From Gaiellales bacterium (GTDB lineage Bacteria > Actinomycetota > Thermoleophilia > Gaiellales > JAICJC01), in NCBI GenBank assembly GCA_038230835.1, contig JBBRMM010000003.1, forward strand, positions 79,904-143,903: a stretch of DNA of 64,000 nucleotides, given 5' to 3'. Under the pieces are notes generated by a model, which saw only the letters and a list, made by a program, of their open reading frames with translations, was not told the DNA's origin and made no database searches. Both the position numbers and the translations under genes were made by a program. Shown here in pieces: positions 9,255 to 29,916 of this stretch (positions within the stretch are counted from its first letter, which is position 1; the number at the start of each line of letters is the position of its first letter).

Positions 9255-9273
9255 GAGTGTGACTATAGCGCAT

Positions 9274-9295
9274 CTCGACCCATTTATGGGTCGAG
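9274..9295. promoter_or_regulatory. Perfect 9-bp inverted repeat (CTCGACCCA-TTTA-TGGGTCGAG) directly upstream of the relaxase gene; candidate oriT hairpin
   Basis: Read directly from the sequence. The repeat is flanked by GACTATAGCGCA on one side and TGCATCTGTGTCTCAC on the other. These recall the hairpin-plus-TGTCT/ATAG layout of MobF oriT nic regions as I remember it for R388. Confidence 0.4.
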
Positions 9296-9350
9296 TGCAT
9301 CTGTGTCTCACTACCTACCGAGGGTAGTAGATAAGGCGGACGGTTGCTGT

Positions 9351-10958: not shown

Positions 10959-11998
10959 GAGAGCGTTCCTCCTTCGGTTAGGAGCACGAGCGCGCGATCC
11001 TTCAGCGCGGCCGGCTCGGTGGCGCGCTCGAAGCGCGCTTCGCGGTGGCTGCGGCTCGCTGTCTCGCGTGTCGGCTGTGTGTGGTCGACGTAGGCGGCCA
11101 CTCCCTGCAATGCGCCCCAGCGCGTACCAGTGATATTCGCGAGATCGGGGGTTGCCGTGTAGGCGGTCGCGATCGCCTCGCGGACGCGCTCGGCGTTACG
11201 GACGGCGCGGCCGCCGCTGGTCGGATCGTGGCGCGGCTCGGGCATGGGAACGAGGGCGGCGAGGAAGCGCTCGAATTCGGCGCCGCTGATCGGCTCGCGG
11301 AGCAGGCGTCCGCCGATCTGCTCCAGCTCGTCGTAGTAGCGCCAGGCGATCCCGAGCGTGCGGCGGGCGTCGATGAGCCGTGCGTCGAGGTTGGCGGTGT
11401 GGCGGGCCTTCCACACGCGGGCGGCGCCATCGAGCGGGAGCATCATCCCGTTGAGGCACGCGAGCCGGAATGGGGCGACGCTGATCGTCACGGCGAGGCC
11501 GCCGTCGTGGCCGTTGCGGAAGCAGAGCAGCGGCAGTACGTCTTCCCCCTCCGCGTCCCCGATGCGGATCTCGCGGTCGAGTTGCATCAGCGCGTGCACG
11601 CGGGCGCCGCCGCGCGTCTCACCCGCGCCGAGCCAGTGCGCCTCGCCGCTGTCGGTGATCGCGTCGCAGAACGCGAACGCGGCCCGGTTCTGCAGCGGCT
11701 CGTAGCCCTTGCCGACGACACCAAGTACCGTCCCTGTGTCGCTGCGCAGGTTTGCGACGACGCGCGGCACCGGCACGCGGCGCGGCCCGTCGTCGTCGTG
11801 GTCGCCGAGCACTGCTTCGAGCGGATATTGCTCGACAGTCCAAGCAAGGTCGGCGGCATCAATCATCGCCGCTGCCGAGCACCCCTCCTCGGGGCGCAGG
11901 GCTCGCACAACTTCGCCCCATCCGGACGGCCGCCCGCCGAACCAGAGCGGTGATCGGGCGTCCTTGATGCGGTAGCTCGGTGTCTCCATTGTCGTCAT
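10955..11998 (-). CDS. DUF932 (phage/plasmid-like TIGR03299 type) protein
   Basis: 347 aa. Sequence character and its fixed position next to a ParB-like gene fit the DUF932 family common in ICEs and plasmids. The call is from memory of the family, not a search. Confidence 0.65.
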   Translation of the reverse strand: MTTMETPSYRIKDARSPLWFGGRPSGWGEVVRALRPEEGCSAAAMIDAADLAWTVEQYPLEAVLGDHDDDGPRRVPVPRVVANLRSDTGTVLGVVGKGYEPLQNRAAFAFCDAITDSGEAHWLGAGETRGGARVHALMQLDREIRIGDAEGEDVLPLLCFRNGHDGGLAVTISVAPFRLACLNGMMLPLDGAARVWKARHTANLDARLIDARRTLGIAWRYYDELEQIGGRLLREPISGAEFERFLAALVPMPEPRHDPTSGGRAVRNAERVREAIATAYTATPDLANITGTRWGALQGVAAYVDHTQPTRETASRSHREARFERATEPAALKDRALVLLTEGGTLS

Positions 11999-15500: not shown

Positions 15501-15914
15501 CTTCGTATCGTAGGGCTCGTAACTCCAGCCTCCGAGGTCCGAGGGCTCGTCGATCCGGACGAGGAAGTCGGCGCGTCCGCGCCAGCCGGCACGTGGGAAA
15601 GTCGCCTGGTAGATGACGTCTGCGCCTGCACACATCGCGGCGATGGTGGTCGCATGAGCCTCGTCGAAGGCGGCGGGGTGTTCCGGTAGCTCGACCTCGG
15701 CGATCGCGCGGCCATTGGCCCGGAGCTCCTCGAGGTACCGCTTCTCGTGCAGGTCGCCCTTGTCGGCGACAAGCTGCGCGAGCGCCTCGCGGATGTGCGG
15801 CTTCGTCCGTCTTCTGTGCGCGGTCTCCAGTTCGAGCGTGGTCAGGTGCGGACACGCGAGGTAGTTCGAGAGGTCGGACGGAGAGAGAAGAAGTTGGCCG
15901 TCGTGCAGCTGCAT
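12594..15914 (-). CDS. Three-domain protein: Cas4/AddB-like PD-(D/E)XK nuclease with a Cys cluster, an RNase-H-like (YprB/TM0106-type) exonuclease domain, and a Dna2/Upf1-like SF1 helicase
   Basis: 1106 aa.
- N-terminal nuclease: YLACPH, GRADFLV, YEPYDTKL, CEHCSRCDFVPVC (pattern C...CxxCx5C).
- Middle exonuclease: FFDMEGDP, HVYHYATYE, AYNEEDC.
- C-terminal helicase: VVQGPPGSGKTY, LVVDEAGQ, LLGDPLQLGQV, VDKFQGREA, LNVAVSRAQ. Confidence 0.85.
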   Translation of the reverse strand: MQLHDGQLLLSPSDLSNYLACPHLTTLELETAHRRRTKPHIREALAQLVADKGDLHEKRYLEELRANGRAIAEVELPEHPAAFDEAHATTIAAMCAGADVIYQATFPRAGWRGRADFLVRIDEPSDLGGWSYEPYDTKLARSAKPAAVLQLAWYAGEIAAIQGRLPECLHVVLGTAEVETYRPADVEAYLRIAQRRLRAHVEDTPETYPWPCEHCSRCDFVPVCRDRWVADDHLTRVASIRRDQIGKLATVDITTLTALGEAPAGLAVRRLAPAMVEKLCDQSALQLHRYRTDELTHRLLVPEERRGLGLLPAPSPGDLFFDMEGDPFYDPAEGLEFLFGVLCRDPGGTTTYRPFWAHDRDGELRAFEEFVDLVGERRQAFSDMHVYHYATYEPSTLARLMGTHATREEEIDEFLRGEIFVDLLQVVRQGIRAGVDSYSLKDVEKLFFTRRAEVSSGNEAVIEFERWLDDKDAARLDAIAAYNEEDCLATLELRGWLLSRLPEAEREHGVPIPFLPPPEGRPEAEHDEAPAETARLRDALLADASDGDGRELAARLLEYHRREARPGWWWYFRRLRMTDEELADDGEAIGSLEHDGAEPVDLSIANPRAKSLEWTFTFPPQQHQFDEGDGGEDPREEGTGWTVSTIDNATGVVRLRRSKEMRDAPLPTSLVPGGPIGTKAQQAALRRLASSLLAGDGRYMHLERLLRCELPLCGALMQCRELADQRDVLDRLEDSYLVVQGPPGSGKTYRGARLITHLLAQGRKVGITAQSHRVIHNLLAEVERAAAEEGLDFKGVKRGDHFESAHVKTSASIAALLDPDVTLVAGTAWLFAREELDGEFDTLVVDEAGQFSLADALACGTSAKRLVLLGDPLQLGQVTQGVHPYGSRASVLEHVLGDHETIPENMGVFLEETRRMHPTVCRFISQAFYEGRLGSIPACAERTTSDGVGVRWFDVSHEGNRVASEEEAVAIATEIERLVGHTFRDRQGERPLRHADVMVVAPYNAQVRLLRERLPRSVEVGTVDKFQGREAAVVFYSMASSSGEDVPRGLDFLMSRNRLNVAVSRAQCLAYVACSPRLLEVDCRTVEHLKLANALCRFVELAEASA

Positions 15915-16053
15915 CAGGAGGAGTATCGACGGTCACTCGGCTGATGGCTACGCGCAGCCTTGAGTCTGGCGCTGGCGGCGAGACCAGCGCGCACGTTCGG
16001 GATGAAGCACACCGTGGAGAAATGACCGTCGCTTCGCTAACCGCTTCCGCTAA

Positions 16054-17680
16054 CCTCGATTCTGCGTGGGGATGGTTGAGGTGGTGTCGGTGGGGTTGTG
16101 ACAGTGGTGGCGTATGCGGGTTGGTGGCCAGGTGCCGGTGTTCGCGTGATGGTCTGGTTTTCTTGCATGCTGCGGCTGGCGTACGGGGCGTGATCACCGC
16201 TCGCCGGTTGCCGGTGAGGTGGGAGTTACATGGGCATCGCGACCGTGATCTGTTTGGCGCGCTGGTAGGCGTCGAGTAGGTGGGTTGTCCACGGCCATGT
16301 GCGGGGTAGGTGGAGGGTGTGTTGACGGCCGTGGTGGGTGATCCGCCCGGCGACGGCGATGAGCGTGAAACGGAGTGTTTGTGGCTCTGTCCACACGCTT
16401 TCGGTGGGGCGCGCGAGGCCGTGTGTCCAGGCGATCAGATCCTGCGCCAAGAGCACGACTTGCAGCCACGTGTGATTGGCCATGAAGCCGCCGAAGGGCA
16501 GGTTTTTGAGGCCCAGCTGGCGCGCTTCGCGGATGCGATCCTCGACGATCGCGTGGTGGCGGTGTGCCCGCTCGATCATGGCCGCGTCCGCCACCTGATC
16601 GTTGGTGATGCAGGCCAGGTAGCGGTGCCCGTCGGCGTCGGAGAAGGACAGTTGCGCACCGGGGTGGGGCCGCTCGCGACGCACGATCAGGCGCAGATGC
16701 GCCGGCCAGCCGGGGTGGGCCGGCCAGCTCGCCTCAGCCAGCCAGGCGCCCTCACGAGGGCTGCCATCCACCTCCGTGATCGGCCGCCAGGCATCGTCTG
16801 CGACCGCCATGATGGCGTCGCGGACCGGGCCGTGCAGCCTCGCCCCGACCACGAACCGCACGCCTCGCTGGCACAACCCCCAGACCACGTCTTTGGCGTA
16901 GCCCGCGGTGTCGGCGCGCACCACCACGTCTTGAGGCGAGACGCTTGCAGGCAACTGCTCAAGCGCCAGGTCAACCACCTCCAACTGGTCTTCGGCGTCC
17001 AGCGCCGAGGCGCAACCGGGCCGCAGGATCCCGGCCAGCGCCTCGCCCGTCTCCGCCAAGTAGGCGACCAACGGGTGAAACCCGAACCCCTGCTTATAGG
17101 TCGCAAACGCCGCCTCCTTCTCGTCTGTGTGGCTGGTCACCAGATGCACGTCGATGTCGATCGTGACCGTCTCGGGTCGCAGACCCGCCTGCCAGGCCCG
17201 CGCACGCGTGGCCGCCCGCCCCGCCGTCAGCCCTGCCAGCGGCGCGCCCACCAGCCGCTCAGCCAATAGCCGCCACGCGGTCGAGTCGTGCGCGGTCGCG
17301 TCTGCAAACAGGGCTGGCTGGTCACGCAACCCACGCAGATGCATCACGCAGTCGCCACCAGCAATCAACATCTGCGCCAAACGCACCAGCGTCCGACCCG
17401 GCGGCTGCGAGCGATACGCCAATCCCACCGCCTCGGTCAACTCCCGCTCCAGGCCCAGCCGCTGCGCCACCTCATCCACCACCACCAGGCCCGCGTGGGA
17501 CACCAACCGATCATCGTCAGCCACCAACCGCAACGTCCGACGCCGCTTCCTATGCTTCACCATCCGGGTGACCTCCTGACGCGGGCCTCGCGGCTGCCCA
17601 TACAGCCCGTCTCCCCGCTCAGGGGGTCATTCTTCTTCTCCCACCGGACGACGCCACCCCACCCTCACGCAGAATCGAGG
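16054..17680 (-). mobile_element. IS1380-family insertion sequence (1627 bp) with imperfect terminal inverted repeats and a 4-bp target-site duplication
   Basis: The left end CCTCGATTCTGCGTGGGGATGG (from 16054) matches the reverse complement of the right end, CCTCGATTCTGCGTGAGGGTGG (to 17680). CTAA is present at 16050-16053 and again at 17681-17684. A single transposase ORF lies inside. Confidence 0.85.
16226..17563 (-). CDS. IS1380-family DDE transposase
   Basis: 445 aa. The N-terminus KHRKRRRTLRLVADDDRLVSHAGLVVVDEVAQRLGLE and the overall length and organisation are typical of IS1380 transposases. Confidence 0.85.
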   Translation of the reverse strand: MVKHRKRRRTLRLVADDDRLVSHAGLVVVDEVAQRLGLERELTEAVGLAYRSQPPGRTLVRLAQMLIAGGDCVMHLRGLRDQPALFADATAHDSTAWRLLAERLVGAPLAGLTAGRAATRARAWQAGLRPETVTIDIDVHLVTSHTDEKEAAFATYKQGFGFHPLVAYLAETGEALAGILRPGCASALDAEDQLEVVDLALEQLPASVSPQDVVVRADTAGYAKDVVWGLCQRGVRFVVGARLHGPVRDAIMAVADDAWRPITEVDGSPREGAWLAEASWPAHPGWPAHLRLIVRRERPHPGAQLSFSDADGHRYLACITNDQVADAAMIERAHRHHAIVEDRIREARQLGLKNLPFGGFMANHTWLQVVLLAQDLIAWTHGLARPTESVWTEPQTLRFTLIAVAGRITHHGRQHTLHLPRTWPWTTHLLDAYQRAKQITVAMPM

Positions 17681-17757
17681 CTAACCAACGTGAGAGGTTG
17701 GCCGGGGGACGGCTGCCTGCCAAGGAAGTGTCTGTGCCCACGAGGGTGGCGGGTCGG

Positions 17758-17786
17758 TTGACTGTCCCGGCTAGGCTCCGATTCAT
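17758..17786 (+). promoter_or_regulatory. Weak candidate promoter for the BREX operon (TTGACT-N17-ATTCAT)
   Basis: A good -35 hexamer but a poor -10, located between the IS right end and brxF. Confidence 0.2.
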
Positions 17787-17837
17787 GCGTCAGCTTTACG
17801 GTGCTCCTCGCGACTTCAACCGCGATGGTTTGCGGCG

Positions 17838-18299
17838 ATGATCACGGACTCTCTGGCGGCGGAGTTGTCCGCCTCGCCCGGACGCTTCGTCCTTATCGAC
17901 GGTCGAGCCAGCGCCAACGAGGTGATCGACGAGTGGGAACAGATGTTGGGCACGACACGGTGCTCGGTGGGCGCACGGCTCACATCGTTGACCGAACCGC
18001 CGTCGAGCCAAGCGATCGAGGCGCTCCTGCGGCCCGATCCCCTCCTCGTTGACATCGAAGTTCTTTTCGCTTCGGAGCTCGCAGTCGATCCGTTGATGCT
18101 GCTGCGGCGCCTGGCCCGAATTTCGAACCCGCGCCTCGCCCTCTGGCCGGGAAGTCTTGCGGCCGGTCGGGCACGGTTCTCAGAGCCGCAACGAGAGGAT
18201 CACTACGACCGTCCCGTCGAGGATGTGATCATCTTGCGGCCAGTGTCCCGTTCGTTTCCCGATGAACCGTGCTTTGAGATCGAGAGGTGGCTGAGTTGA
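17838..18299 (+). CDS. brxF: Small protein in the BrxF position of a type 3 BREX operon
   Basis: 153 aa, overlapping the brxC start by 13 nt. Position and size match BrxF, but the sequence contains no lysine and therefore no Walker A GK[ST]. Confidence 0.5.
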   Translation: MITDSLAAELSASPGRFVLIDGRASANEVIDEWEQMLGTTRCSVGARLTSLTEPPSSQAIEALLRPDPLLVDIEVLFASELAVDPLMLLRRLARISNPRLALWPGSLAAGRARFSEPQREDHYDRPVEDVIILRPVSRSFPDEPCFEIERWLS

Positions 18300-21200
18300 A
18301 GTACGACGAGCTGATCGCCTTCGAGCCGATCGACAGCGTCAAAGTGCTGACTGAGGCCGACAGCGAGGATTTGGCTCGACGCGACGTGTCGACGTTCGTG
18401 ATCTCGCCGCAGATGCGACGAATGTTGGTCGAGCAACTCCTCCCGCATCTCCGGCTCGACGGCTCGGTCGACACCAAAGGCGTGCTCGTGGTAGCCAACT
18501 ACGGCACGGGCAAAACCCACCTCATGGCAACTATTTCAGCGGTGCTCGAGCACGCCGAACTCGCCGCCGAGCTGCGTGATGAGGACGTGCGCAAGGCGAT
18601 CGACGATGTCGCCGGGAGCTTCCAGGTGATGCGCGCGGAGATCGGCGCGACCAAGATGGGGCTGCGAGACATCGTCTGTGGAGAACTTGAGAGCGGGCTC
18701 AAGCGCCTAGGTGTGGACTTCACCTTCCCCCCGCTTGAGGAGGTAAGCAACACCAAGGACTCGCTCGTGGACATGATGGCCGCTTTTGAGAAGGTCGAGC
18801 CCGACCGCGGACTGCTGTTCGTGCTCGACGAGCTTCTGGACTACCTGCGCTCGCGTCGGGACGCCGAATTGATCGTCGACCTCGCGTTCTTGCGTGAGAT
18901 CGGCGAAATCAGTCGGACGACTCGCTTCCGCTTCATCGCCGGCATCCAGGAGGCGCTCTTCGACAACCCGCGTTTCGCGTCCGCGTCAGACGCTATCCGG
19001 CGCGTCCGCGACCGGTTCGAGCAGGTCCGTATCTCGCGTGAGGATGTCGCCTACGTCGTCCAGGAACGGCTCCTCCGCAAGGAGGCCGCGCAGAAGGCGC
19101 TGATCCGCGAGCACCTTGAGCGCTTCACGCCGGCGTTCGACGGGATGTCCGAGCGGCTCGAGGAGTTCGTCGCGCTCTACCCGGTGCATCCGTCGTACCT
19201 GCGGACGTTCGAGAGGGTGACGCTCGTGGAAAAGCGCCGCGTTCTGTCGACGCTGTCACATGCCATGGCCGAGCTCCTAAAGAGCGACGTTCCGACGGAA
19301 GCTCCCGGTCTCATCTGCTACGACGCCTATCGGTCTGAACTCGACAACGACCCTTCGAACCGATCGATACCCGACGTCGCGCTGGTGCTCGACCGCACCC
19401 ACGTACTGCGGTCCAAGCTCGAGAGCGCGCTGCCGCAGAAGGAGGACGTGCCAGCCGCGCTGCGCATTGTGGACGCGCTCGCGGTTCACCGCCTGACGAC
19501 TGAGGATATCGACGTCCCGATCGGCTTGACCGTCGACGAATTGCGCGACGACCTATGTCTCATTCCCGAAGGAGTGCCGGAACTTGACGCGGGTTTCATT
19601 GGTACGACGCTTGAGTCGGTTGTGGCAGAGATTGTGAAAGCCGTCTCGGGTCAGTTCCTTTCCCGCAACGACGACAACGGCCAACTCTTCCTCGATGTCC
19701 GGAAGGACATCGACTACGACCAGCTCATCCAGGAGCGCGCCGACTCGCTCGACGACCAGCGCCTAGACGACGCCTACTTTCGCGCGCTGGAGGAGGTTCT
19801 CGAGCAGCGCGACACACCATATGTCGCTAGCTACCGCATCTGGTCGTACGAGCTTCCGTGGAAGGCCAAGAACGTGACGCGGCTCGGGTACTTGTTCATG
19901 GGAGCGCCGAACGAGCGCTCTACGGCGCAGCCGCCGCGCGACTTTTACATCTATTTCCTCCAGCCCTACGAGGAACCTGCGTTCGCCGACCAGGAGTTGG
20001 CTGACGAGACCTTTGTGAGGCTTGAGGCGCCAGACGATGACTTCACTGCCGCGCTACGCCGGTACGCCGGTGCGGACGCGTTGACGGCCAGTTCCACTGA
20101 GCAGCATCGGCTCGTCTACGAGCAGAAACGCCAGCAGGCATTGCAGACGATGGTCGTTTGGCTTCGGCAGAACATGGCGAACGCGATGACGGTGACCTAC
20201 CGAGGCGAGGCGAAGCCCCTCGGTACCTGGCTCCAGCAGATCCCGGGTGCAAAGACATCAGTGAAGGCGCAGATCGATGCGATCGCAGCCCGTGCGCTCG
20301 AACCACACTTCGATGAGCGCTATCCCGGCTATCCCGCGTTTTCCGCAGAGATCACGAAGCAAAGCTTCGACGGAACGGTGCAGGCCGCGATCTCACAGAT
20401 TGCTACACGCCGCGCGACAGCTCTCGGGACCAAGGTACTCACTTCTCTAGGGCTGGCGGACATGAACGGGCAGATCGTCGCCGACGGCGAGTTCGCGAAG
20501 GCACTCCTCACCGCGCTTGAAAAGTCGGGGGACAAGGCCGTCAACCGTTCGGAGTTGCTGACCGAACGGGACCCCGGCGTACTCACGTGGGCGCCATGGC
20601 ACCTCGAGCCGTCATGGCTCGTCGTTGTCGCCGCAGCACTCTGCCATGCTGGACGGCTGGAACTCGGCTACCCGGCTGGGCAAGTCGACGCTGTCGGGCT
20701 CGACCGGTTGACGAAGATGTCGCGCGAGGAGCTCGTGCAGCTGACACACGTTGCCCCTCCGAAGGCGCTTCCTATCGTCGCACTACGCGACGCCGCGGCT
20801 CTGCTCGACATCGCCCCTGGCGCCGTCCCCGACTCTGGCGCGACCGAACCAGTGGTTCAGCAGATCCTGGACAAGACCCAGACCTACCTGAATCGCGTGC
20901 TCGACGCCGAGCAGCAAGTGAGCGACGGCGTGCTCGTTTGGGGCGCCCACGCGATCGACCACCAGCAGGACCGTCGCCTCCGACTCGCAGATTTGCGCAA
21001 GGTTCTCGAGGACCTCAAGGGCCGCGACTCGGTCGGGAAGATGAACAAACTGGCAATCGGGCCTGCGGAGCTCGAGGCGGCACACCGCGGAAAGCAGGAG
21101 CTTGAACGGACCGAGGGAATCGTCAGGGCTCGTAACCATCTCTCCGCGCTCCAGTACGTCACCGATGCGCAGGCCGCGTTCGACCAGGTCGACCCCTTCC

Positions 21201-21970
21201 TGGACGAGGCATCGGAACTGCGCTCAGAAGTGCTCGAACTGTTCGCCGGAGACAAGGTGGATCCGGCGGCCGTCTCCGTTACAAAGAGCAAGGCCGAGCA
21301 GCTGAAAGCCCGCTACCGCGAAGAGGCGGAGCACGCACATCAGCGTGACCGTCTTGACTCCAACGGCGAGAAGCACAAGAAGGCGATTCTCGAGGGCGGC
21401 ACCTTCAAGGACCTCGCGGCGCTCGCCAGTCTCGAGCTGTTGCCGTCGGGGACATTCGGCGTGATGCAGCAGCATCTCGCGGGGATCGGCACGTGCCTCG
21501 AGTTCACGTCTGATTCACTCGCCGAGACCGTCCGCTGCCCCCACTGCGGCTATCTTCCGCGGCCGTCAACCGGCCCGACCGCAAAAGCCCAAGTCGAAGA
21601 GCTTGACGAGGAGCTGCGCAAGCTGCGCTCGAACTGGTCCGCCGCCCTGCACGACAGCATCAAGCCGCCTGAGATCGCACAGGGCATCGAGCTCGTGAAG
21701 TCCGGGCGTGCCGAGCTTGAAGCCTTCGCCTCGAGCGGCGAGCTGCCCTCACCAGTGCCGAAGCCGCTCGTGACCGGGCTCCAGGAGGTGCTGCGCGGAT
21801 TCACGGTCCGGAACGTCTCCGCAGAAGACGTGTACTCGGCGCTCTTCCCGGACAACAGCCCAGTGCCCTTGTCGTCCTTTGAGGAACGCTTCCACGCGTT
21901 CGCCTCGAAGCTTCGAGGCGATGTGGACCCAAGCAAGATCCGCGTGCTCCCAGCCGCTCCGGAGCAGTAG
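18287..21970 (+). CDS. brxC: BREX ATPase BrxC/PglY
   Basis: 1227 aa with P-loop VVANYGTGKTHLMA, Walker B LLFVLDELLDYL, a long helical C-terminal part and a CPHCGY zinc-ribbon-like motif. Confidence 0.85.
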   Translation: MAELKYDELIAFEPIDSVKVLTEADSEDLARRDVSTFVISPQMRRMLVEQLLPHLRLDGSVDTKGVLVVANYGTGKTHLMATISAVLEHAELAAELRDEDVRKAIDDVAGSFQVMRAEIGATKMGLRDIVCGELESGLKRLGVDFTFPPLEEVSNTKDSLVDMMAAFEKVEPDRGLLFVLDELLDYLRSRRDAELIVDLAFLREIGEISRTTRFRFIAGIQEALFDNPRFASASDAIRRVRDRFEQVRISREDVAYVVQERLLRKEAAQKALIREHLERFTPAFDGMSERLEEFVALYPVHPSYLRTFERVTLVEKRRVLSTLSHAMAELLKSDVPTEAPGLICYDAYRSELDNDPSNRSIPDVALVLDRTHVLRSKLESALPQKEDVPAALRIVDALAVHRLTTEDIDVPIGLTVDELRDDLCLIPEGVPELDAGFIGTTLESVVAEIVKAVSGQFLSRNDDNGQLFLDVRKDIDYDQLIQERADSLDDQRLDDAYFRALEEVLEQRDTPYVASYRIWSYELPWKAKNVTRLGYLFMGAPNERSTAQPPRDFYIYFLQPYEEPAFADQELADETFVRLEAPDDDFTAALRRYAGADALTASSTEQHRLVYEQKRQQALQTMVVWLRQNMANAMTVTYRGEAKPLGTWLQQIPGAKTSVKAQIDAIAARALEPHFDERYPGYPAFSAEITKQSFDGTVQAAISQIATRRATALGTKVLTSLGLADMNGQIVADGEFAKALLTALEKSGDKAVNRSELLTERDPGVLTWAPWHLEPSWLVVVAAALCHAGRLELGYPAGQVDAVGLDRLTKMSREELVQLTHVAPPKALPIVALRDAAALLDIAPGAVPDSGATEPVVQQILDKTQTYLNRVLDAEQQVSDGVLVWGAHAIDHQQDRRLRLADLRKVLEDLKGRDSVGKMNKLAIGPAELEAAHRGKQELERTEGIVRARNHLSALQYVTDAQAAFDQVDPFLDEASELRSEVLELFAGDKVDPAAVSVTKSKAEQLKARYREEAEHAHQRDRLDSNGEKHKKAILEGGTFKDLAALASLELLPSGTFGVMQQHLAGIGTCLEFTSDSLAETVRCPHCGYLPRPSTGPTAKAQVEELDEELRKLRSNWSAALHDSIKPPEIAQGIELVKSGRAELEAFASSGELPSPVPKPLVTGLQEVLRGFTVRNVSAEDVYSALFPDNSPVPLSSFEERFHAFASKLRGDVDPSKIRVLPAAPEQ

Positions 21971-21972
21971 CC

Positions 21973-24570
21973 GTGACCGAGCGCCTCGACCTCGGTGACG
22001 AGCGCGTCGCCGCACCCGATCTCTCCGACGATCTGCGCGCGCGTCTTCCTCAACTACGTGATGTTCCCGGGTGCCCGAGTGGCACCGACGACGCGATCAT
22101 CGAGATGTCTGCGCCGCCGGCCCACACCGCGTGCCCGAATCCATACCTGCGCGAGTGGGTCGAGCAGCACCAGAGTACGGACGTCGACAGGCCTGATCCA
22201 GGCCCCTTTGCGGCCGACAGCCAGGCGGGGAAGACGTCGCTCGTCTACAAGGCGCACGGTTACCCGACGAAGGTGCCGCACGAGGCCATCATGCGCCTCA
22301 TCCTCCACTACACGAAGCCCGGTGACATTGTGCTGGACGGCTTTTGCGGTACGGGGATGACAGGCGTGGCAGCGCAGATGTGCGGTCGCGCCGACGTCGA
22401 TCTGCGGACGACGATCGAACTCGAAATGGGCAACGTGCAGTGGGGAATCCGCCGCGCCGTGCTTCAGGACCTCGGCCCAAGCGCCACCTTCATTGCCGCT
22501 GGTTTGAACGTCCCGGTCGATGTCGACGCCTTCGACCGCGCATCGAAAGACATGCTTGACCGGTTCGATGATGACTACGGATGGATGTACGAGACGAAGC
22601 TCGAGGACGGAAGGACGGCGCGGATTGATTACACCGTTTGGTCGGAGGTGATGACGTGCCCCCACTGCGGCTCTCGCATCGTATTCTTCGAGGCGGCGTT
22701 CAACCACGACTCTGGCGGTGTGCGTGAGGAGTTCAACTGCACGTCGTGTGGTGCCGAGGTTAAGAAGGCATCGCTAGAACGGAGATTCGCAACGATCCGG
22801 ACGCTCGCGGGCGACACGATTGAGCGCGTCGAGTACGAGCCCGTTGAAATCCATTGGCGAAGTGGTCGCGATAAGGGTAGCAAGTCCTTCGATCAGGCGG
22901 ATCGGGATGTGCTCGACCGAGTCGCAGCTGCAGCCGTCGTCGGATTTCCGGCGACGGCGCTTCCCATTGAGACGATGGGGCACGGTTCGCGGCTTGCGCC
23001 AAAGGGGTTCACTCGCATAGACCACCTCTGGGGCGATCGCGCCCTGACCGCCCTAACGGCTCTCTGGCGCTTGGCAGGAACATCTCAGGTCGTGGCGACT
23101 CGGCGTGTATTGCGCTTTTGGGTTGAGCAGGGTTGTTGGGGTTTGTCATGGATGAATCGATACAGCGCTACCCACTTCTCCCAGGTCAACCGTAACCTCA
23201 ATGGCGTCTACTACGTTGGGTCGCTTCACGCGGAGCCAAGCCCTCGCTACAACCTCGAAGGCTCGCGTCCGTCAACGGGAAAGCGCTCGTCGCTCGTCAA
23301 ACTCTGGACGTCCCTTAGGAACAGCGGCGATCACGTTCGGATCTCAACTGGGTCGTCGACGGTGCTTGACATCCCGGACAGCTCGATCGATTACGTCTTC
23401 GTTGACCCGCCGTTCGGGGCGAACATCCCGTACGCCGACCTCGCGTTGGTGATCGAGAATTGGCATGGAGTGCTGACGTCAACGGGCGAAGAAGCAGTCA
23501 CTCACGAACAGCAGGGCAAAGGTCTCTTCGAGTACAGCGCGCTGATCGAGGCTTGCTTCCGCGAGTTCCATCGCGTGCTGAAGCCTGGACGTTGGATGAC
23601 GGTGGAGTTCTCGAACTCGTCGAACGCGGTGTGGAGTGCGATTCAGCAGGCGCTTGCGTCGGCGGGATTTGTGGTGGCCGACACACGCGTGCTCGACAAG
23701 GAACAGCATTCGTTCCGGCAGGTAACTGCGAAAAACGCTGTTAAGCGCGATCTGATCATCTCCGCGTACAAACCTCACGCGGATGTGGCCGAGCGCGTCC
23801 GACTCTCCGGCGGTAGCGAGGACAGCGTATGGGCATTCGTTCGCGAACATCTCTCTCACTTGCCGCTGCGCGATCTCCTTGAAGGGGTTCCGCGGATCGT
23901 GCGCGAGCGACAGGCTGACCGCTTGTACGACCGGATGGTGGCGTTCCACGTCGCGCAGGGGATCGTCGTGCCAATGACGGTGGCGGAGCTCTACGCGGGG
24001 CTTGACCAACGTCTACCGCTCCGCGACGGGATGTACTTCCTTCCGGCCCAGGCGGAGGAGTACGAGAAGCTGCGAGCGGCTGGAATGGACCCCGAACAGG
24101 CCGAGCTCTTCATTACTGGCGAGAGTTCTGCAGTGGCTTGGCTGCGTCAGTTCCTCCGAGGCAACGCTCTCGCCTTCGCTGGCATCCAGCCGGCGTTCTT
24201 CCAGGAGGTCCAGAAGGGCACTGCCGGCTGGGACGAGTTGCCGGACCTCAAGGAGCTTCTGGACCAGAATTTCGTGACCGACACCGAGGGGCGATACGTC
24301 GTTCCCGACCCGAAGAAGGCGGAGCATCTGGAACAGCTTCGCGAGGCGGACCTGCTCCGGGTCTTTGATGGGTACGTCGTTGGTACGGGGCCGCTTGAGC
24401 AGTTCCGTTCAGAGGCCGTCAAGGCCGGCTTCAAGCGGGCTTACCGCGACCGGGACTTCGAGACGATTATCAAGGTCGGCCAGCGCATCCCAATGGAGGC
24501 TTTCAACGACGACACCGCATTGATGCATTACTTCCGTAACGCTGAACGGCTCCACCGCGGCGCGCGGTGA
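21973..24570 (+). CDS. pglXI: BREX type 3 DNA methyltransferase PglXI
   Basis: 865 aa with SAM-binding motif DIVLDGFCGTGMTG, catalytic motif YVFVDPPFGANIPY and an internal CPHCG...CTSCG zinc ribbon. Confidence 0.85.
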   Translation: MTERLDLGDERVAAPDLSDDLRARLPQLRDVPGCPSGTDDAIIEMSAPPAHTACPNPYLREWVEQHQSTDVDRPDPGPFAADSQAGKTSLVYKAHGYPTKVPHEAIMRLILHYTKPGDIVLDGFCGTGMTGVAAQMCGRADVDLRTTIELEMGNVQWGIRRAVLQDLGPSATFIAAGLNVPVDVDAFDRASKDMLDRFDDDYGWMYETKLEDGRTARIDYTVWSEVMTCPHCGSRIVFFEAAFNHDSGGVREEFNCTSCGAEVKKASLERRFATIRTLAGDTIERVEYEPVEIHWRSGRDKGSKSFDQADRDVLDRVAAAAVVGFPATALPIETMGHGSRLAPKGFTRIDHLWGDRALTALTALWRLAGTSQVVATRRVLRFWVEQGCWGLSWMNRYSATHFSQVNRNLNGVYYVGSLHAEPSPRYNLEGSRPSTGKRSSLVKLWTSLRNSGDHVRISTGSSTVLDIPDSSIDYVFVDPPFGANIPYADLALVIENWHGVLTSTGEEAVTHEQQGKGLFEYSALIEACFREFHRVLKPGRWMTVEFSNSSNAVWSAIQQALASAGFVVADTRVLDKEQHSFRQVTAKNAVKRDLIISAYKPHADVAERVRLSGGSEDSVWAFVREHLSHLPLRDLLEGVPRIVRERQADRLYDRMVAFHVAQGIVVPMTVAELYAGLDQRLPLRDGMYFLPAQAEEYEKLRAAGMDPEQAELFITGESSAVAWLRQFLRGNALAFAGIQPAFFQEVQKGTAGWDELPDLKELLDQNFVTDTEGRYVVPDPKKAEHLEQLREADLLRVFDGYVVGTGPLEQFRSEAVKAGFKRAYRDRDFETIIKVGQRIPMEAFNDDTALMHYFRNAERLHRGAR

Positions 24571-26993
24571 CCTCGGACGAGCACGTCTGGTGGCCTGCCG
24601 GGCGCCGCTCGTTGCGTGTTCTGACGCGCACAGAGCTGTGGGGTCAACGCTTGATCGACGCGATCGACGTCGCAAGCGGCTCGTTGATCCGACTCGACGA
24701 AGTCGACGTGACACCCCTCGCCGGCCGCCGCTGGGAACGAGACGAGGTGATCTGGAGAGCGTCTGCGTGCCGCGCGATTGCAGCTGCGGCCGCGGGGGCT
24801 GCGGTTGCGGCGGCGTCTTCCGGCGTCGAGCTGTTACCTCACCAGGCTGCGACCCTGACCAGGGCACTCAAGCTAGATCCGGTCCGACTAGCGCTGTGCG
24901 ACGAGGTTGGGCTGGGCAAGACGATCACCGCAGCAGCCATCTATACCGAGCTCAAGGCGCGAGGACGTGCCTCGCGGGTGCTGGTTGTCGCGCCGAAGAG
25001 CGTGCAGCTTCAGTGGGTGGCGGAGTTCGCCGACCGGTTTGAAGAGGAGTTTGTCCGCGTTGGCCCGGAAGGAATGCCGGTCGATGCCGGCGTCGATCCC
25101 TGGCGCGCGTTTCCGCAGGTCGTGTGCTCCCTGGACGCGGTAAAGCCGATCCGCGCGAGAGCGGGTTGGAGCCTGGAGCAGGTCGATGCGTACAACCAGC
25201 GTCGGGTAGAGGCAATCGTCGCGGCGGGCTGGGATCTCGTGATCTTCGACGAGGCGCACCACGTGGCGGGCTCGAGCGACGAGGTAGCGCGCCACCGCCT
25301 CGCCCGCGAACTGTCGGCGACGGTCCGGAACATCCTTCTGCTGTCGGCGACGCCGCACTCCGGGAAGTCCGACGGATTTCGGCGCTTCGTCGGCCTGCTC
25401 GATGAGCAGTTTTTCGGCGGTGCTCCACTCACGCGGGACAGGGTCCAGGAGCTTGTCGCTCGCACGGAGAAGCGTACGGCGATCGACAGAGCTGGTCGTC
25501 CGCTGTTCATGCCGCGTACCACAACCATGGAGGTCGTTCGGTACGGCGATCGGACGGTCGAGCGTGACCTCTACGACGCCGTAACCGAATACGTACGTGA
25601 GGGGTATGGGCGTGCCCTCCGAGAGAAGCGTCCGGCGGTCGGCTTCCTCGTGCTCCTCATGCAGCGTCTCGTCTCGTCGAGCACCGCGGCGATCCTCGCG
25701 GCGCTTGAGAAGCGAGCCGCGGCGCTTGAGGCGGCGCCTGAGCAACTCGAGCTGGGCGCATTCACCGGGGACTGGGAAGAACTGACCGGCGAAGAACAGT
25801 TCGAGCGGATGGCCGAGATGCGCGGGCACGGGTGGGTGAACGAGCGCCTTCAAGTCCAAGAGCTGCTGCAGCGCGCTCGACGTGCCGCGTCGAGCGGTCT
25901 CGATGCGAAGGTGAGTCATCTCTTCGATCTGCTTGGCCAACTTGAGACGAGCGAGAGCGACCCCGACGTGAAGGTGCTTCTCTTTACGGAGTTCCTGCCC
26001 ACGCAGGAGATGCTCTTGAATGCGCTGGCGGGCGCAGGCATCTCTGCCGTCGCGATCAACGGTGGGAACTCGCTTGCCGAACGAGCACTCGCGCAGGACG
26101 CGTTTCGGGAGCGCTCCCGCGTGCTCGTCTCGACAGATGCCGGCGGCGAGGGGATCAACCTGCAGTTCGCCCACGTCGTCGTCAACTGGGATCTGCCGTG
26201 GACGCCCACGAAGATCGAGCAGCGCATTGGTCGCGTTGATCGGATTGGGCAGCCACTCCCAGTGAAGGCCTACAACCTAGTTCGTGAGAACTCGATCGAC
26301 CTTCGTGTACTCGAGGTGCTTGAGCGCAAGTTGGCGACGATCCTCGTCGAGCTCGGAAGTGACAAGCGGGGCGACGTCCTCGAGAGCCTAAGCACACGGA
26401 CAGAGCGCTTGTACGTTGATGCGATCCTCGAGCCCGATGCTCTTGAGCGCTCCGCGGACGACGTGACGGCCGCGGCGCGCGACGAGGTGGTCTCGCAAGC
26501 CCCGACGCTCGAACTGATAGCGCCGCAGGCAATCAAGCAAGTCGTGCGGTCTGACGCGGACATCCGCGACTCCGTGCGTCGTGCGTCGGAGGCACGAGCG
26601 CGGATGCTCGGCAGCGATGTGCTTCGAGGCGCGCTGGATGCGTTGCGCGAGTTGCCCGAGGTGGCACCGGGAGAGCCTGTTCCTCTGCTTCCCGATTCAG
26701 GGGCGTCCGGATGGTGGGGCTGTTTCGAGGTGGCCGACAATGAGCACCGCCGAACGTGCTTCGCCGTCTTCAGTCCCGACGGAGGCGGGCTTGTCCGCCC
26801 GGACATCGCTGACCGCTGCTGGAGCGCGCTCGCCATCGAGGGCGCGGGCGAGACTTCGGGACCACCTGAGCCGGTGGAGTTCGACGAGCTCCTTGGTCTC
26901 GGTCGCGACCACGGCTATCGCGCCTGGGAGACGCTCGGATCGGCGAGTGTCCCGGTGCTCACGCTGCGGCTTCTCGTCCGGGTAACTTCGTGA
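24567..26993 (+). CDS. brxHII: BREX type 3 SNF2/DEAH-family helicase BrxHII
   Basis: 808 aa with LCDEVGLGKTITAAA, VIFDEAHHVAG, LLSATPHSG, VSTDAGGEGINLQ and EQRIGRVDRIGQ. Start and stop overlap by GTGA on both sides. Confidence 0.85.
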   Translation: MTSDEHVWWPAGRRSLRVLTRTELWGQRLIDAIDVASGSLIRLDEVDVTPLAGRRWERDEVIWRASACRAIAAAAAGAAVAAASSGVELLPHQAATLTRALKLDPVRLALCDEVGLGKTITAAAIYTELKARGRASRVLVVAPKSVQLQWVAEFADRFEEEFVRVGPEGMPVDAGVDPWRAFPQVVCSLDAVKPIRARAGWSLEQVDAYNQRRVEAIVAAGWDLVIFDEAHHVAGSSDEVARHRLARELSATVRNILLLSATPHSGKSDGFRRFVGLLDEQFFGGAPLTRDRVQELVARTEKRTAIDRAGRPLFMPRTTTMEVVRYGDRTVERDLYDAVTEYVREGYGRALREKRPAVGFLVLLMQRLVSSSTAAILAALEKRAAALEAAPEQLELGAFTGDWEELTGEEQFERMAEMRGHGWVNERLQVQELLQRARRAASSGLDAKVSHLFDLLGQLETSESDPDVKVLLFTEFLPTQEMLLNALAGAGISAVAINGGNSLAERALAQDAFRERSRVLVSTDAGGEGINLQFAHVVVNWDLPWTPTKIEQRIGRVDRIGQPLPVKAYNLVRENSIDLRVLEVLERKLATILVELGSDKRGDVLESLSTRTERLYVDAILEPDALERSADDVTAAARDEVVSQAPTLELIAPQAIKQVVRSDADIRDSVRRASEARARMLGSDVLRGALDALRELPEVAPGEPVPLLPDSGASGWWGCFEVADNEHRRTCFAVFSPDGGGLVRPDIADRCWSALAIEGAGETSGPPEPVEFDELLGLGRDHGYRAWETLGSASVPVLTLRLLVRVTS

Positions 26994-28777
26994 CCGGCTG
27001 GCTCGAAGCCCAAGTCTCCGAAGTGCGCCAGGCGACATCCACGCCGGTCGCTCTCGTTGTTGACCCTCATGAGCTTCTGCCGGCGGAGCGCCTCAGCGTG
27101 GTGGCAGAGACCGTCGCGGCAGCCGACTGGTGGTCGCTGCGACGGTCATGGGAAGCGGTTGGTCGTCACCGAACATGGGGTGACGGGCGCCTGATCTTGC
27201 ATGTCACCGGTGACGCGGGTAACCGAGAGCTCCCGTACGACATTGCACGATCGTCGACAACAGTAGTCATCGGCTGGCCAGTTCCGCCGCCCTGGCGTGC
27301 GTTGTTCAGCAGCCTCCTGACCGAGCCCGGAGCAGACATTCTGGTCGATGCCGCCCAGCGCGGACAAGCAACGCGCCTACTCCTCGAGAGGTTGTTCGGC
27401 GTTGGGTTTCCCGTGGGGTCGGAGAGTGGCGAGCTTGCCGCCATCGCTGCGTTGCGAGCTCGCGCGACTCTCTCCGACGCGGTGTGGGGACTCGTTCATG
27501 AGACAGTCACCATGCCACTGGCTCGCGACCTGGCGAGGCAGCCGCCCGAACGCTCAACCGCGACCGAGCGTTGGACGTCGTGGCTCTCGGGCGAGCACGA
27601 GGATCCAGTGCTGCGCGACGCGGGTCCCGCATTGCTCGGGCTCGTTACGGCTGGTGTGCTGCCGCGGGTGACGAACATGGCTCCGTCCGCACCTGGTTGG
27701 GCGCAGTTGGCAGCTGCCGACATCGACGTTGTAAGTCGTGCCACGGCGCTGCTCGGCGAGCCTCCCGTTTCGGGCATCCCTTCCGGGCTGTCGGACTGGA
27801 GCGCGGTGGCAGTGTGGATGGGGACGATCCGAGGGCTGCTGTCGCTTGATCCTGCCGCTCCGGAAACACTTCTAAGAGACGTCCATGAGCAAGCCGTCGA
27901 CCTGGACGACGTCTTCGCTCCGTGGCTGAGGGCGCAGTATGGGTCCCTGCTCCAGAGCGCCGCTATTCCGCCCGTGACTGTGCATAAAGTCGCGCCGTTC
28001 CTCGGCCGCCGCGTCGCCGACGGAGCGCGGGTGCTGCTCGTCGTCCTCGACGGCGTCGGCTTCGCGCAGTGGGAGATCCTCCTCGACAAGACCGGCATCA
28101 GTCCGCTCCAGCAGCACGCCTGCTTGTCCATGCTTCCCTCCGAGACGACCGTCTCGCGTCAAGCCCTGCTCGCCGGAACGACTCCCGATGACTTCGCATC
28201 GTCGTTTCACACAACCGCCAAGGAAAAGCAACATTGGCATGACTTCTGGAGTGGACACGGCGTCCCCAACGAAGAGGTGCGCTATTACCGCGTTGACGGC
28301 CGCCGAGAAGACATCGTCCCCCTCTCGTCCGCCTACCGGGCCGTCGCCGTGATCGTGTCCGCGATCGACATGCTCATGCACGGAAGCGAGCTGCTCGGTG
28401 ACGCCCAGCTCTCTGCGGGCGTGACTGCGTGGTGCCAGCAGGGCTACTTGACAGGCCTGCTGGCCCAGGCCGACGAGCACGGGTATGAAACGTGGCTGAC
28501 CGCCGACCACGGCAACGTCGTCGCGACCGCCGGCGGCGCGCCACCAGAGGGTCTCAGGGTGGAGCGACAGGGAACAAGGCTCCGGCTCTACCGCTCCCTG
28601 GCAATGCGCGATGCTTCTGCGAACCTCGGGATCGCGTGGACACCCCCACGTCTGCCGCCCGACGTACACGTCCTCTTTGCTCCACGGCGCGAAGGGTTCC
28701 AGCGTCACGGACTGCGGGTCACCCACGGCGGGCTCAGCTTCGAGGAGGTCTTTGTGCCGCTTGCGAGGTTGACATGA
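26990..28777 (+). CDS. pglZ: PglZ alkaline-phosphatase-superfamily protein
   Basis: 595 aa with VLLVVLDGVGFAQWE, TTVSRQALLAG, SAIDMLMHG and LTADHGNV, characteristic of the PglZ domain. Confidence 0.85.
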   Translation: MTGWLEAQVSEVRQATSTPVALVVDPHELLPAERLSVVAETVAAADWWSLRRSWEAVGRHRTWGDGRLILHVTGDAGNRELPYDIARSSTTVVIGWPVPPPWRALFSSLLTEPGADILVDAAQRGQATRLLLERLFGVGFPVGSESGELAAIAALRARATLSDAVWGLVHETVTMPLARDLARQPPERSTATERWTSWLSGEHEDPVLRDAGPALLGLVTAGVLPRVTNMAPSAPGWAQLAAADIDVVSRATALLGEPPVSGIPSGLSDWSAVAVWMGTIRGLLSLDPAAPETLLRDVHEQAVDLDDVFAPWLRAQYGSLLQSAAIPPVTVHKVAPFLGRRVADGARVLLVVLDGVGFAQWEILLDKTGISPLQQHACLSMLPSETTVSRQALLAGTTPDDFASSFHTTAKEKQHWHDFWSGHGVPNEEVRYYRVDGRREDIVPLSSAYRAVAVIVSAIDMLMHGSELLGDAQLSAGVTAWCQQGYLTGLLAQADEHGYETWLTADHGNVVATAGGAPPEGLRVERQGTRLRLYRSLAMRDASANLGIAWTPPRLPPDVHVLFAPRREGFQRHGLRVTHGGLSFEEVFVPLARLT

Positions 28778-29478
28778 CCGGACGTGGCCCCGTTCTCGAC
28801 CGGCCGCTCGAGCCCGCCTGGCTTGACGCCGCGCTGCGGATCGCGCGCGAGACGGGAGACCTCGATGAGGTGCGGAGCCGCCTGCACGTCGCACTCGCCG
28901 ACGGCGGCCTCGGGACAGCGGCTCGCGTGAAGACGGTCACAGCGCTTATGCGGACATGGGCGAGCCCGCGCCAAGGGTCGGCGCCGGCGGTCTACTGGGC
29001 CAGGGATGCGCTTGCCAACGAGGAGGACCTTCGCGCAGTGCATCTCGGGGCGCTGCTCGCCGCATATCCATTCTTCGGTGACGTCTGCGCGACCGTCGGA
29101 CGTGTCCTAGCGCTGGAAGAGCAAGTGACGACCCCTGACGTCAGGGCGCGCATTCGCTCCTCGTGGGGTGATCGGCGCACTGTCCACAACGCCGTACAGC
29201 GGGCAATTAAGACCTTGCGCGCATTCGAGTTGCTGACCGGCGATCCGGGAAGCTCACTCAGCCACCGCGCTGAGCGCTTGGTCGTCTCGCCACGGGCCGG
29301 AAGGTGGATCACGCACATGCTCCTGCTTTCGCGTGGAGCCGAATCGATTGACGAACATGATCTGCGCTCCGCCCCGGAACTGTTCGGGCTGCGCCTACCC
29401 GAGCGGCTCGACAACGGATACGTCCTACTCGAGCGCCACCGCGAGGGCGGTGGACGTACGGTGCTAGCCGTAGTGTGA
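28774..29478 (+). CDS. brxA: BrxA (DUF1819-like), terminal gene of the type 3 BREX operon
   Basis: 234 aa starting at the ATG in an ATGA overlap with the pglZ stop. The call rests on size, position and coupling; the listed 328-aa ORF from 28492 would overlap pglZ. Confidence 0.6.
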   Translation: MTGRGPVLDRPLEPAWLDAALRIARETGDLDEVRSRLHVALADGGLGTAARVKTVTALMRTWASPRQGSAPAVYWARDALANEEDLRAVHLGALLAAYPFFGDVCATVGRVLALEEQVTTPDVRARIRSSWGDRRTVHNAVQRAIKTLRAFELLTGDPGSSLSHRAERLVVSPRAGRWITHMLLLSRGAESIDEHDLRSAPELFGLRLPERLDNGYVLLERHREGGGRTVLAVV

Positions 29479-29737
29479 CCGGACGGAGGTGTGCACCAAG
29501 TCCCGGCGCCGATGACCGTTCGGCTCGTGCGAGCTGCGCCATCGGGAAGAGCATCCGCGCCGCGCACTGGGCCTGCGATTCTGACGGAGCAAGCACTGAC
29601 CAATGACGGCTGGATCTTCGATCCGCGAGTGGAACCGCGGCAACAACCTGAAGCGCAAGCTCCAGCTCGTTGAAGATTGAGCAGCACGAAACGGCCGCGA
29701 GCGGCTGATGCGCTACTGTCGCACGGCCGTCGAGGCC

Positions 29738-29759
29738 GGGCAGCAAACGGGCAGCAAAC
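29738..29759. repeat. Tandem 11-bp direct repeat GGGCAGCAAAC x2
   Basis: Read directly from the sequence, in the non-coding stretch between brxA and the tRNA fragment. Confidence 0.6.
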
Positions 29760-29871
29760 GTCTGAACACGGCTTCGCTCGACATCGGGAGGCGACTCGCG
29801 AAAGACCCGAAACACCGCATGGGTAGAGCGACAACGAGTCCATCGTCGCCAACCGTCGTGAGTCTCGAAGT

Positions 29872-29916
29872 GGCCTGTCACGCCGGAGGTCGCGGGTTCG
29901 AGTCCCGTCGCTCCCG
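29872..29916 (+). other. 3' half of tRNA-Asp(GTC), not a complete gene; putative attR of the island
   Basis: GGCCTGTCACGCCGGAGGTCGCGGGTTCGAGTCCCGTCGCTCCCG contains an anticodon loop CTGTCAC, variable loop AGGTC, T-arm GCGGGTTCGAGTCCCGT and a 3' acceptor strand. The roughly 30 nt upstream have no matching 5' acceptor strand (GGGAGCG) and no D-arm. Confidence 0.7.

Follow-up and report, generated by a model that had tools for sequence, protein, structure and literature searches.

A complete type 3 BREX operon beside a tRNA-Asp fragment on a Gaiellales contig

We describe a bacteriophage exclusion (BREX) operon in a 64,000-nucleotide stretch of DNA from a Gaiellales bacterium (NCBI GenBank assembly GCA_038230835.1, contig JBBRMM010000003.1, positions 79,904 to 143,903 of the forward strand), which we refer to as the window and to which all coordinates below apply. 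The operon belongs to type 3, a class that was reportedly defined in the BREX classification of Goldfarb and colleagues in 2015. It is complete and intact, with six genes in the order brxF-brxC-pglXI-brxHII-pglZ-brxA at window positions 17838-29478. Our overall reading, to which we assign a probability of about 0.9, is that these genes encode an apparently functional type 3 system that was acquired horizontally as a cassette and that lies at the attR-proximal end (attR being the right attachment site) of a conjugative-type element integrated at tRNA-Asp.

Layout and integrity of the operon

The open reading frame (ORF) table contains six ORFs between positions 17838 and 29478, all on the forward strand:

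17838-18299, forward strand: brxF, encoding a small BrxF-family protein (153 aa) whose P-loop is degenerate and lacks Walker A
18296-21970, forward strand: brxC/pglY, encoding a large P-loop ATPase of 1224 aa from a TTG start
21973-24570, forward strand: pglXI (BrxXI), encoding a DNA methyltransferase of 865 aa with an internal target-recognition insert
24567-26993, forward strand: brxHII, encoding a Swi2/Snf2 (RapA-like) helicase/translocase of 808 aa, a short form
26990-28777, forward strand: pglZ, encoding an alkaline-phosphatase-superfamily PglZ protein of 595 aa
28774-29478, forward strand: brxA, encoding a BrxA-like DNA-binding protein of 234 aa from an ATG start

Two of these starts lie within longer frames. 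A GTG at 18287 is an alternative start for brxC that would give a protein of 1227 aa, and the BrxC hidden Markov model (HMM) begins at the TTG residue (18296); the brxA ATG (28774) sits inside a longer ORF that spans 28492-29478. Direct reading of the sequence shows that four of the five junctions are overlaps of stop and start codons. The TGA of brxF overlaps the TTG of brxC as TTGA, the pglXI/brxHII and brxHII/pglZ junctions are each GTGA, and the pglZ/brxA junction is ATGA, while at the brxC/pglXI junction a TAG is followed by CC and then GTG, which leaves a 2-nt gap. An earlier first-pass annotation of the window had described precisely this pattern of junctions. The overlaps suggest that the six genes undergo coupled translation from one transcript.

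Support for the sequence itself comes from an independent assembly, in which a Logan contig (L019, from SRR24807096) is 100% identical to window positions 17520-29901 and yields the same six gene calls. All six proteins also align end to end with their relatives in three related loci (L001-L003), each at full length. The end-to-end alignments and the identical Logan contig thus give no sign of a frameshift in any of the six genes, and BrxC, PglXI, BrxHII and PglZ have all kept their catalytic motifs intact. A tandem-repeat scan of the operon, in which phase-variation repeats were sought, returned only short two-copy repeats, and a megablast search of 72,556 plasmids found no plasmid match to the operon.

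Component assignment and competing explanations

The gene order is the canonical type 3 order quoted in PMC10799925 and PMC12839542, the latter of which recognizes six core components in type 3 and describes BrxF as a counterpart of BrxB that resembles signal transduction ATPases with numerous domains (STAND) (Rakesh and Krishnan, NAR 2026). Every gene in the operon has the named component as its best HMM type, in the published order, with PADLOC HMM E-values for the six genes that run from 0 to 3.6e-8 and are far beyond chance. The first-pass annotation had proposed this set of genes and this order, and HMM typing agrees with it for each gene.

BrxC matches the PADLOC BrxC model PDLC02482 over its full length (1269 bits, E = 0) and Pfam DUF6079, the BrxC-PglY family that is also named BrxC-PglY_N (1152 bits). 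It contains a Walker A motif, ANYGTGKT, at residues 67-74 and a Walker-B-like LLFVLDE at approximately 173-179, and has no sequence match among PDB structures. PglXI matches the PADLOC PglXI model (1.3e-273) and, in two stretches, Pfam N6_N4_Mtase. Its motif I (FCGTG, at 124) and motif IV (DPPF, at 478) are separated by a region that contains four cysteines (CPHC at 229 and CTSC at 256), and approximately 265 aa follow motif IV as a C-terminal region.

BrxHII matches the PADLOC model for BrxHI/BrxHII (708.6 bits, 4.2e-213) and the Pfam domains SNF2-rel_dom, Helicase_C and ResIII, with GLGKT at 115-119, DEAH at 228 and QRIGRVDRIGQ at 552-562. An AlphaFold2 (AF2) model built with 30 homologues (predicted local distance difference test, pLDDT, 81.8; predicted template modeling score, pTM, 0.77) has an N-terminal beta-rich domain, a two-lobed motor, a helical region at 577-693 and one alpha+beta domain at 705-806. 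When the PDB was searched by fold, the top five matches were all E. coli RapA, with 6bog_A the best (E 6.5e-28), and the NCBIfam RapA model also matches the protein, at 171.7 bits. The best 120 homologues are 640-843 aa long and mostly ~790-830, from which we conclude that the short form of BrxHII is lineage-wide.

The PglZ protein matches the PADLOC model (6.4e-68) and Pfam PglZ (1.3e-14, 55 bits against a cut-off of 25), and its best NCBIfam model is that of BREX-3 PglZ, with 226.8 bits versus 59 bits for the type 2 model. Its only PDB matches are weak ones to the PglZ domain of PorX. Conserved Asp/Thr/His clusters (LDGVG at 353-357, SETT at 383-386 and DHGN at 506-509) may supply the metal ligands and the nucleophile. 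The last protein matches two PADLOC BrxA models (1.1e-26 and 3.6e-23), and its gene is conserved as the final cassette gene in related loci.

Other known systems were considered on component content. HMM scans of the operon flanks found none of BrxL, PglW, BrxB, BrxD and 3'-phosphoadenosine-5'-phosphosulfate (PAPS) reductase. BREX types 1, 2, 4 and 5 were rejected for want of BrxL, PglW, BrxB, PglX and PAPS reductase, and the earlier statement that the operon is neither type 1 nor type 2 is borne out by the absence of BrxL and PglW from the operon and its flanks. Type I/III restriction-modification was rejected on the same grounds of content, and PADLOC HMM typing returned type 3 components in place of those of such systems or of DISARM (defense island system associated with restriction-modification).

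Several points weigh against a complete and functional type 3 operon. BrxF has no Walker A, with no GxxxxGK[ST] in its sequence, and its NCBIfam BREX_3_BrxF score (43.9 bits, 1.8e-11) is slightly below the cut-off of 50; its AF2 model, built with 24 homologues, is poor (pLDDT 61), and Foldseek against the PDB returned nothing below E = 2. PglZ also scores slightly under its NCBIfam curated cut-off of 250 bits, and BrxA has no Pfam or NCBIfam match at all. PF01555 enzymes include N4-cytosine methyltransferases as well, which leaves the DPPF motif, a form of motif IV typical of N6-adenine enzymes, as the one feature behind the N6-adenine call for PglXI. An insertion sequence upstream of brxF could have displaced or altered the native BREX promoter. 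Promoter and terminator counts did not stand out from those in shuffled sequence, and no convincing promoter was found there. Lastly, a literature search found no experimental study of any type 3 BREX, and every mechanistic step that we propose below is therefore an analogy drawn from type 1 BREX and from the comparative model in PMC12839542.

The identity of the first gene is clarified by its homologues. The PADLOC BrxF model matches the protein at 3.6e-8 and aligns with its C-terminal half only, and window-type BrxF proteins align only to the last ~65 positions of the NCBIfam BrxF model. At the Walker A position, 24 close homologues share the consensus PGRFGLIExGPGA, and 15 related loci have a BrxF homologue at the same place in the operon. 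A profile of these 24 proteins, searched against 1.84 billion representatives, recovered 233 family members. Nearly all of the closer members lack a Walker A, whereas distant members (E ~1e-6 to 1e-8) carry GxGK[ST] at the equivalent place and match the NCBIfam family "BREX-3 system P-loop-containing protein BrxF" over their full length at 86-183 bits, above the cut-off. Because the profile search reaches canonical, Walker-A-bearing BrxF, the first gene is a true homologue of BrxF, in a subfamily that lacks the P-loop. An "inactive STAND" fold for this protein received no structural confirmation from the AF2 model or the PDB fold search, and the assignment uses the sequence-profile evidence instead. 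The BrxF and PglZ scores just under the NCBIfam cut-offs thus point to a divergent subclade and not to a different system. This actinobacterial subclade is divergent yet widespread.

The insertion upstream of the operon bears on whether the system is expressed:

16054-17680, reverse strand: IS1380-family insertion sequence (NCBIfam transpos_IS1380, 283.6 bits; Pfam DDE_Tnp_1_4)

This element has terminal inverted repeats of 25 nt, its 4-bp target site CTAA is cleanly duplicated (16050-16053 and 17681-17684), and it lies 157 bp upstream of brxF, between brxF and the gene for a RecB-like nuclease-helicase. Its position, together with the failure to find a sigma-70-like promoter upstream, would fit a decaying or silenced remnant in which the ORFs are intact and expression has been lost because the insertion cut off the promoter. 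We consider this unlikely, although it is the strongest of the competing explanations. The six ORFs are intact and their catalytic motifs conserved, 153 bp of native DNA are left upstream of brxF, and the promoter scan relied on an E. coli-type (sigma-70-like) consensus that is ill suited to this organism. The ends of insertion sequences can, moreover, supply promoters themselves.

A second alternative holds that the ATPase, methyltransferase and helicase form a BREX-related, DUF499-centered (Hma-like) trio that unrelated genes adjoin by chance. The helicase does match PADLOC HmaA (259.9 bits), and type 3 BrxC, BrxXI and BrxHII have homologues in DUF499-centered systems (PMC12839542). The ATPase, however, matches DUF6079/BrxC from end to end (1152-1269 bits) and does not match DUF499, PglZ, BrxA and BrxF are translationally coupled in the same operon, and the six-gene set is conserved as one unit, all of which makes a chance juxtaposition very improbable. 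Least probable of all is DISARM or another SNF2-helicase-centered restriction-modification-like system, since the helicase's matches to DrmD (PADLOC, 274.7 bits; NCBIfam DISARM_DrmD, 314.5 bits) fall short of the NCBIfam cut-off of 610 and far short of the BrxH model score of 708.6 bits, no protein but the helicase gives DrmD or DrmA matches and these are below its BrxH score, the operon and flanks contain no DrmA (DUF1998 helicase), DrmB (DUF1998) or DrmC (phospholipase D, PLD), and PglZ, BrxC (DUF6079) and BrxA, none of which is a DISARM component, are present.

A conserved cassette on a tRNA-associated element

A locus scan that took one genome per species identified 18 loci encoding BrxC relatives with 35-92% identity, in Gaiellaceae, Solirubrobacterales, Acidimicrobiia, Dormibacterota and other metagenome-assembled genomes (MAGs). 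Seven of these loci (L001-L003, L005, L006, L010 and L015) contain all six genes at full length and in the same order. Three others (L007-L009) have the same gene order with BrxHII or PglZ matched in part only, and the order is shared by at least 10 loci overall (from Thermoleophilia, Acidimicrobiia and other MAGs). Another two (L004 and L014) are five-gene variants, brxF-brxC-pglXI-pglZ-brxA, that lack BrxHII, which agrees with the published figure of 77% of type 3 loci with BrxHII and ~23% without.

The surroundings of the cassette are not shared. A tBLASTn search with 13 window flanking proteins found no homologue in any of the 18 related loci, and the difference in flanks at every locus indicates that it is the cassette, and not the neighborhood, that is conserved. 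The G+C content at third codon positions (GC3) of the BREX genes is 0.74-0.80, lower than in the element backbone (0.83-0.90) and in chromosomal genes (0.82-0.92), which points to a foreign origin. Transposases adjoin the cassette in two of the related loci (L001 and L004), and no tRNAs were found in any of the related loci. The cassette, which measures ~11.6-11.9 kb, appears to be a discrete and horizontally acquired unit that moves in self-contained form between different mobile carriers.

In one related locus, from a Solirubrobacterales MAG (L002), the cassette is bracketed by perfect inverted repeats of 2,154 bp (7220-9373 and 21255-23408 of that locus) that encode IS110-family transposases. 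The bracket may be invertible or akin to a composite transposon, or it may have arisen as an artefact of assembly.

In the window, the features that surround the operon and define its carrier are as follows:

716-2404, forward strand: type IV coupling protein, VirD4/TraG-like (Pfam T4SS-DNA_transf, 2e-38; TraG-D_C; TrwB_AAD_bind)
2370-6049, reverse strand: IetA-IetS pair, an AAA ATPase and an S8 peptidase (PADLOC IetS, 929.8 bits; IetA, 469.5 bits)
6318-9311, reverse strand: TrwC-family relaxase-helicase (Pfam TrwC, 2.2e-78; AAA_30, 1.6e-52)
9351-11998, reverse strand: ParB_N/HTH_ParB protein (535 aa) and DUF932 protein, translationally overlapped, downstream of the relaxase
12594-15914, reverse strand: fusion of a TM0106-family RecB-like nuclease and a superfamily 1 (SF1) helicase (NCBIfam TIGR03491, 258 bits)
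29872-29916, forward strand: tRNA-Asp(GTC) 3' fragment of 45 nt, an attR-like right end with the 5' half missing

The right end is marked by the tRNA-Asp fragment, which starts 394 bp past brxA and spans the anticodon arm through the acceptor end. Intact tRNA-Asp genes in soil metagenome contigs end in exactly these 45 nt; in the window, ARAGORN found no tRNA, and the Rfam tRNA match to the fragment reaches only 16 bits. The Logan contig that covers the operon breaks off within the fragment, at 29901, as a repeat would lead one to expect. Genes of chromosomal type start at 29956 and include those for a DUF1326 protein, a copper chaperone, a major facilitator superfamily (MFS) transporter and sigma factors, as well as DNA ligase, NAD-glutamate dehydrogenase and ATP-binding cassette (ABC) transporters. 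The tRNA-Asp fragment and the housekeeping genes that come after brxA thus make the operon the last cargo before an attR-like end, and positions 29872-29916 are probably the attR of an integrated element. Several of these metagenome contigs contain, in addition to an intact tRNA-Asp, another 3' fragment a few kb further downstream, a pattern characteristic of integrated elements.

In the metagenome contigs L026, L046, L051, L072 and L094, the same 29-mer of the tRNA-Asp 3' end occurs two or three times at spacings of a few kb, which suggests that in soil bacteria this 3' end is a hot spot where integration is frequent. Between the copies in L026 lie 7.9 kb with genes for cyclase/STAND proteins and LuxR-type ATPases, and a Pfam search of the ORFs there gave no recognizable integrase. 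The sequence TCGTCGCCAACCGTCGT (29843-29859), which lies just inside the fragment in the window, resembles the equivalent position in L026.

Toward the left, the element runs off the edge of the window. No integrase, VirB4 or other type IV secretion system (T4SS) gene was found among the genes scanned in window positions 1-30000, and the window contains no intact tRNA-Asp that could be the partner at the left attachment site (attL). Attempts at leftward extension by exact look-up of the coupling protein (two candidate ORFs) gave no match, and look-up of IetS led to a 7-kb contig that falls wholly inside the window. A ParB-like/DUF932 pair is typical of the leading regions of conjugative elements, and neither of the two proteins matches a defense model here. 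The carrier is likely an integrative and conjugative element (ICE), but it may instead be only mobilizable. The first-pass annotation had presented the operon as cargo of a self-transmissible ICE; the coupling protein, the TrwC relaxase, the attR-like tRNA-Asp fragment and the switch to housekeeping genes uphold the cargo part of that claim, while self-transmissibility is unproven, with no T4SS or integrase in the window. The setting is best explained by a high-GC, Thermoleophilia-like actinobacterial host with the element integrated in its tRNA-Asp gene.

The same annotation had placed two other defense candidates next to the operon, and these differ in standing. IetAS is a solid assignment. 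The pair lies between the coupling-protein and relaxase genes, and its GC3 of 0.66-0.67, the minimum of the window, indicates that it is a separate and recent cargo acquisition. The nuclease-helicase is a weak defense candidate that may instead serve the maintenance of the element. Its 1106 aa comprise a RecB/Cas4-like nuclease, RNase_H_2 and an SF1 (AAA_11/AAA_12) helicase, its PADLOC match to MkoA of Mokosh (168 bits) covers the helicase part only, and none of the other loci has a homologue beside the BREX cassette. The gene was divergent from brxF before the IS1380 insertion. The BREX and IetAS systems illustrate how defense systems travel as cargo of conjugative elements.

Far to the right, among housekeeping genes, positions 51708-52550 (forward strand) encode a stand-alone beta-class N6_N4 DNA methyltransferase of 280 aa (Pfam 1.5e-45). 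It has no obvious restriction partner nearby and would add a second motif to the host methylome.

Proposed mechanism and comparison with known systems

In the mechanism that we propose, the six genes would be translated in coupled fashion from a single transcript. PglXI probably methylates a specific host DNA motif, most likely at N6-adenine, and thereby marks self. The BrxC ATPase, PglZ, BrxA and the P-loop-less BrxF would probably form a sensing/restriction complex directed at unmethylated incoming DNA, with BrxA and BrxF as presumptive accessory DNA-binding or scaffold proteins. PglZ may nick DNA or hydrolyze nucleotides, and the RapA-like Swi2/Snf2 motor BrxHII could serve as a DNA translocase in place of BrxL; the analogies for PglZ nicking and for the helicase role come from PMC12839542. 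The system would be expected to stop phage DNA from replicating and not to cleave it by classical restriction.

The operon is a clean example of a well-catalogued system, whose domains have been annotated in detail, and adds little new knowledge about it. Its value is that of an intact and compact type 3 example with defined ends, from a mobile element of a Thermoleophilia-like lineage that has received little study. Type 3 could be put to its first functional test with this operon, to learn which motif is methylated, what the RapA-like helicase does and whether BrxF suffices without a P-loop. Type 3 had been called one of the rarer and least studied BREX classes in the first-pass annotation. 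With type 3 present in 919 of 5934 BREX-bearing taxa (PMC12839542), its rarity is only relative, while "least studied" is a fair description in light of our literature search.

The carrier resembles tRNA-integrated ICEs and integrative and mobilizable elements (IMEs) with defense islands in its relaxase, coupling protein, ParB-like and DUF932 genes, in the lower GC3 of its defense cargo (IetAS and BREX) and in the partial tRNA 3' copy at the chromosomal junction. It differs from them in that the window lacks an integrase, an intact tRNA-Asp (attL) and mating-pair-formation genes.

Among individual proteins, the closest parallel is that between BrxHII and the RNA-polymerase-associated Swi2/Snf2 ATPase RapA of E. 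coli, which is the best structural match over the whole BrxHII chain. Identity is 16-19%, and BrxHII differs in having a single N-terminal beta domain, a shorter C-terminus and a place in a defense operon. RNA polymerase binding is a RapA trait for which BrxHII offers no evidence.

Type 1 BREX (brxA-brxB-brxC-pglX-pglZ-brxL) has been studied experimentally and shares with the window operon a BrxC ATPase, PglZ, a BrxA-like protein and a methyltransferase. By analogy, the two types may also have in common a small, inactive STAND-like partner, which would be BrxB in type 1 and BrxF in the window, and both presumably mark self by methylation and block the replication of unmethylated DNA. The window operon has no BrxL, a SNF2 helicase taking the place of this Lon-like protein, its gene order is different and its methyltransferase is a PF01555-type PglXI and not PglX.

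The closest comparison is with type 3 itself. Published type 3 methyltransferases contain an insert between Rossmann strands 2 and 3 with a four-cysteine zinc finger, and the C-terminal region of BrxXI/PglXI comprises ~280-300 residues with helix-turn-helix (HTH) domains; BrxHII has a RapA-like architecture of ~940 aa with two alpha+beta domains after the motor (PMC12839542). The window operon agrees with this type in all six components and in their order, including a DUF6079-type BrxC and a terminal BrxA. Its PglXI possesses the nested target-recognition insert, the four-cysteine motif and the C-terminal extension, its BrxHII is a RapA-like Swi2/Snf2 protein with an N-terminal beta-rich (Tudor-like) domain, unlike the Ski2/Lhr-like BrxHI, and its PglZ fits the type 3 model best. 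It differs in that BrxHII, at 808 aa, is ~130 residues shorter and has a single alpha+beta domain after the motor, that BrxF is without a Walker A and matches its model with its C-terminal 65 residues only, and that the BrxF and PglZ scores lie slightly below the NCBIfam cut-offs.

The departures of BrxF and BrxHII from canonical type 3 are minor, and those of BrxF, BrxHII and PglZ are traits of a large actinobacterial/Chloroflexota subclade and not of the window locus alone. We tentatively raise the possibility, which we regard as more doubtful than the type 3 assignment itself, that the cassette represents a distinct actinobacterial/Chloroflexota subtype of type 3, defined by a P-loop-less BrxF and a short, ~810-aa BrxHII with one post-motor alpha+beta domain and moving between carriers. 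Were this so, and were the differences to alter DNA sensing or restriction, a separate description of the subtype would be warranted, and experiments on type 3 BREX could begin with it as a compact model.

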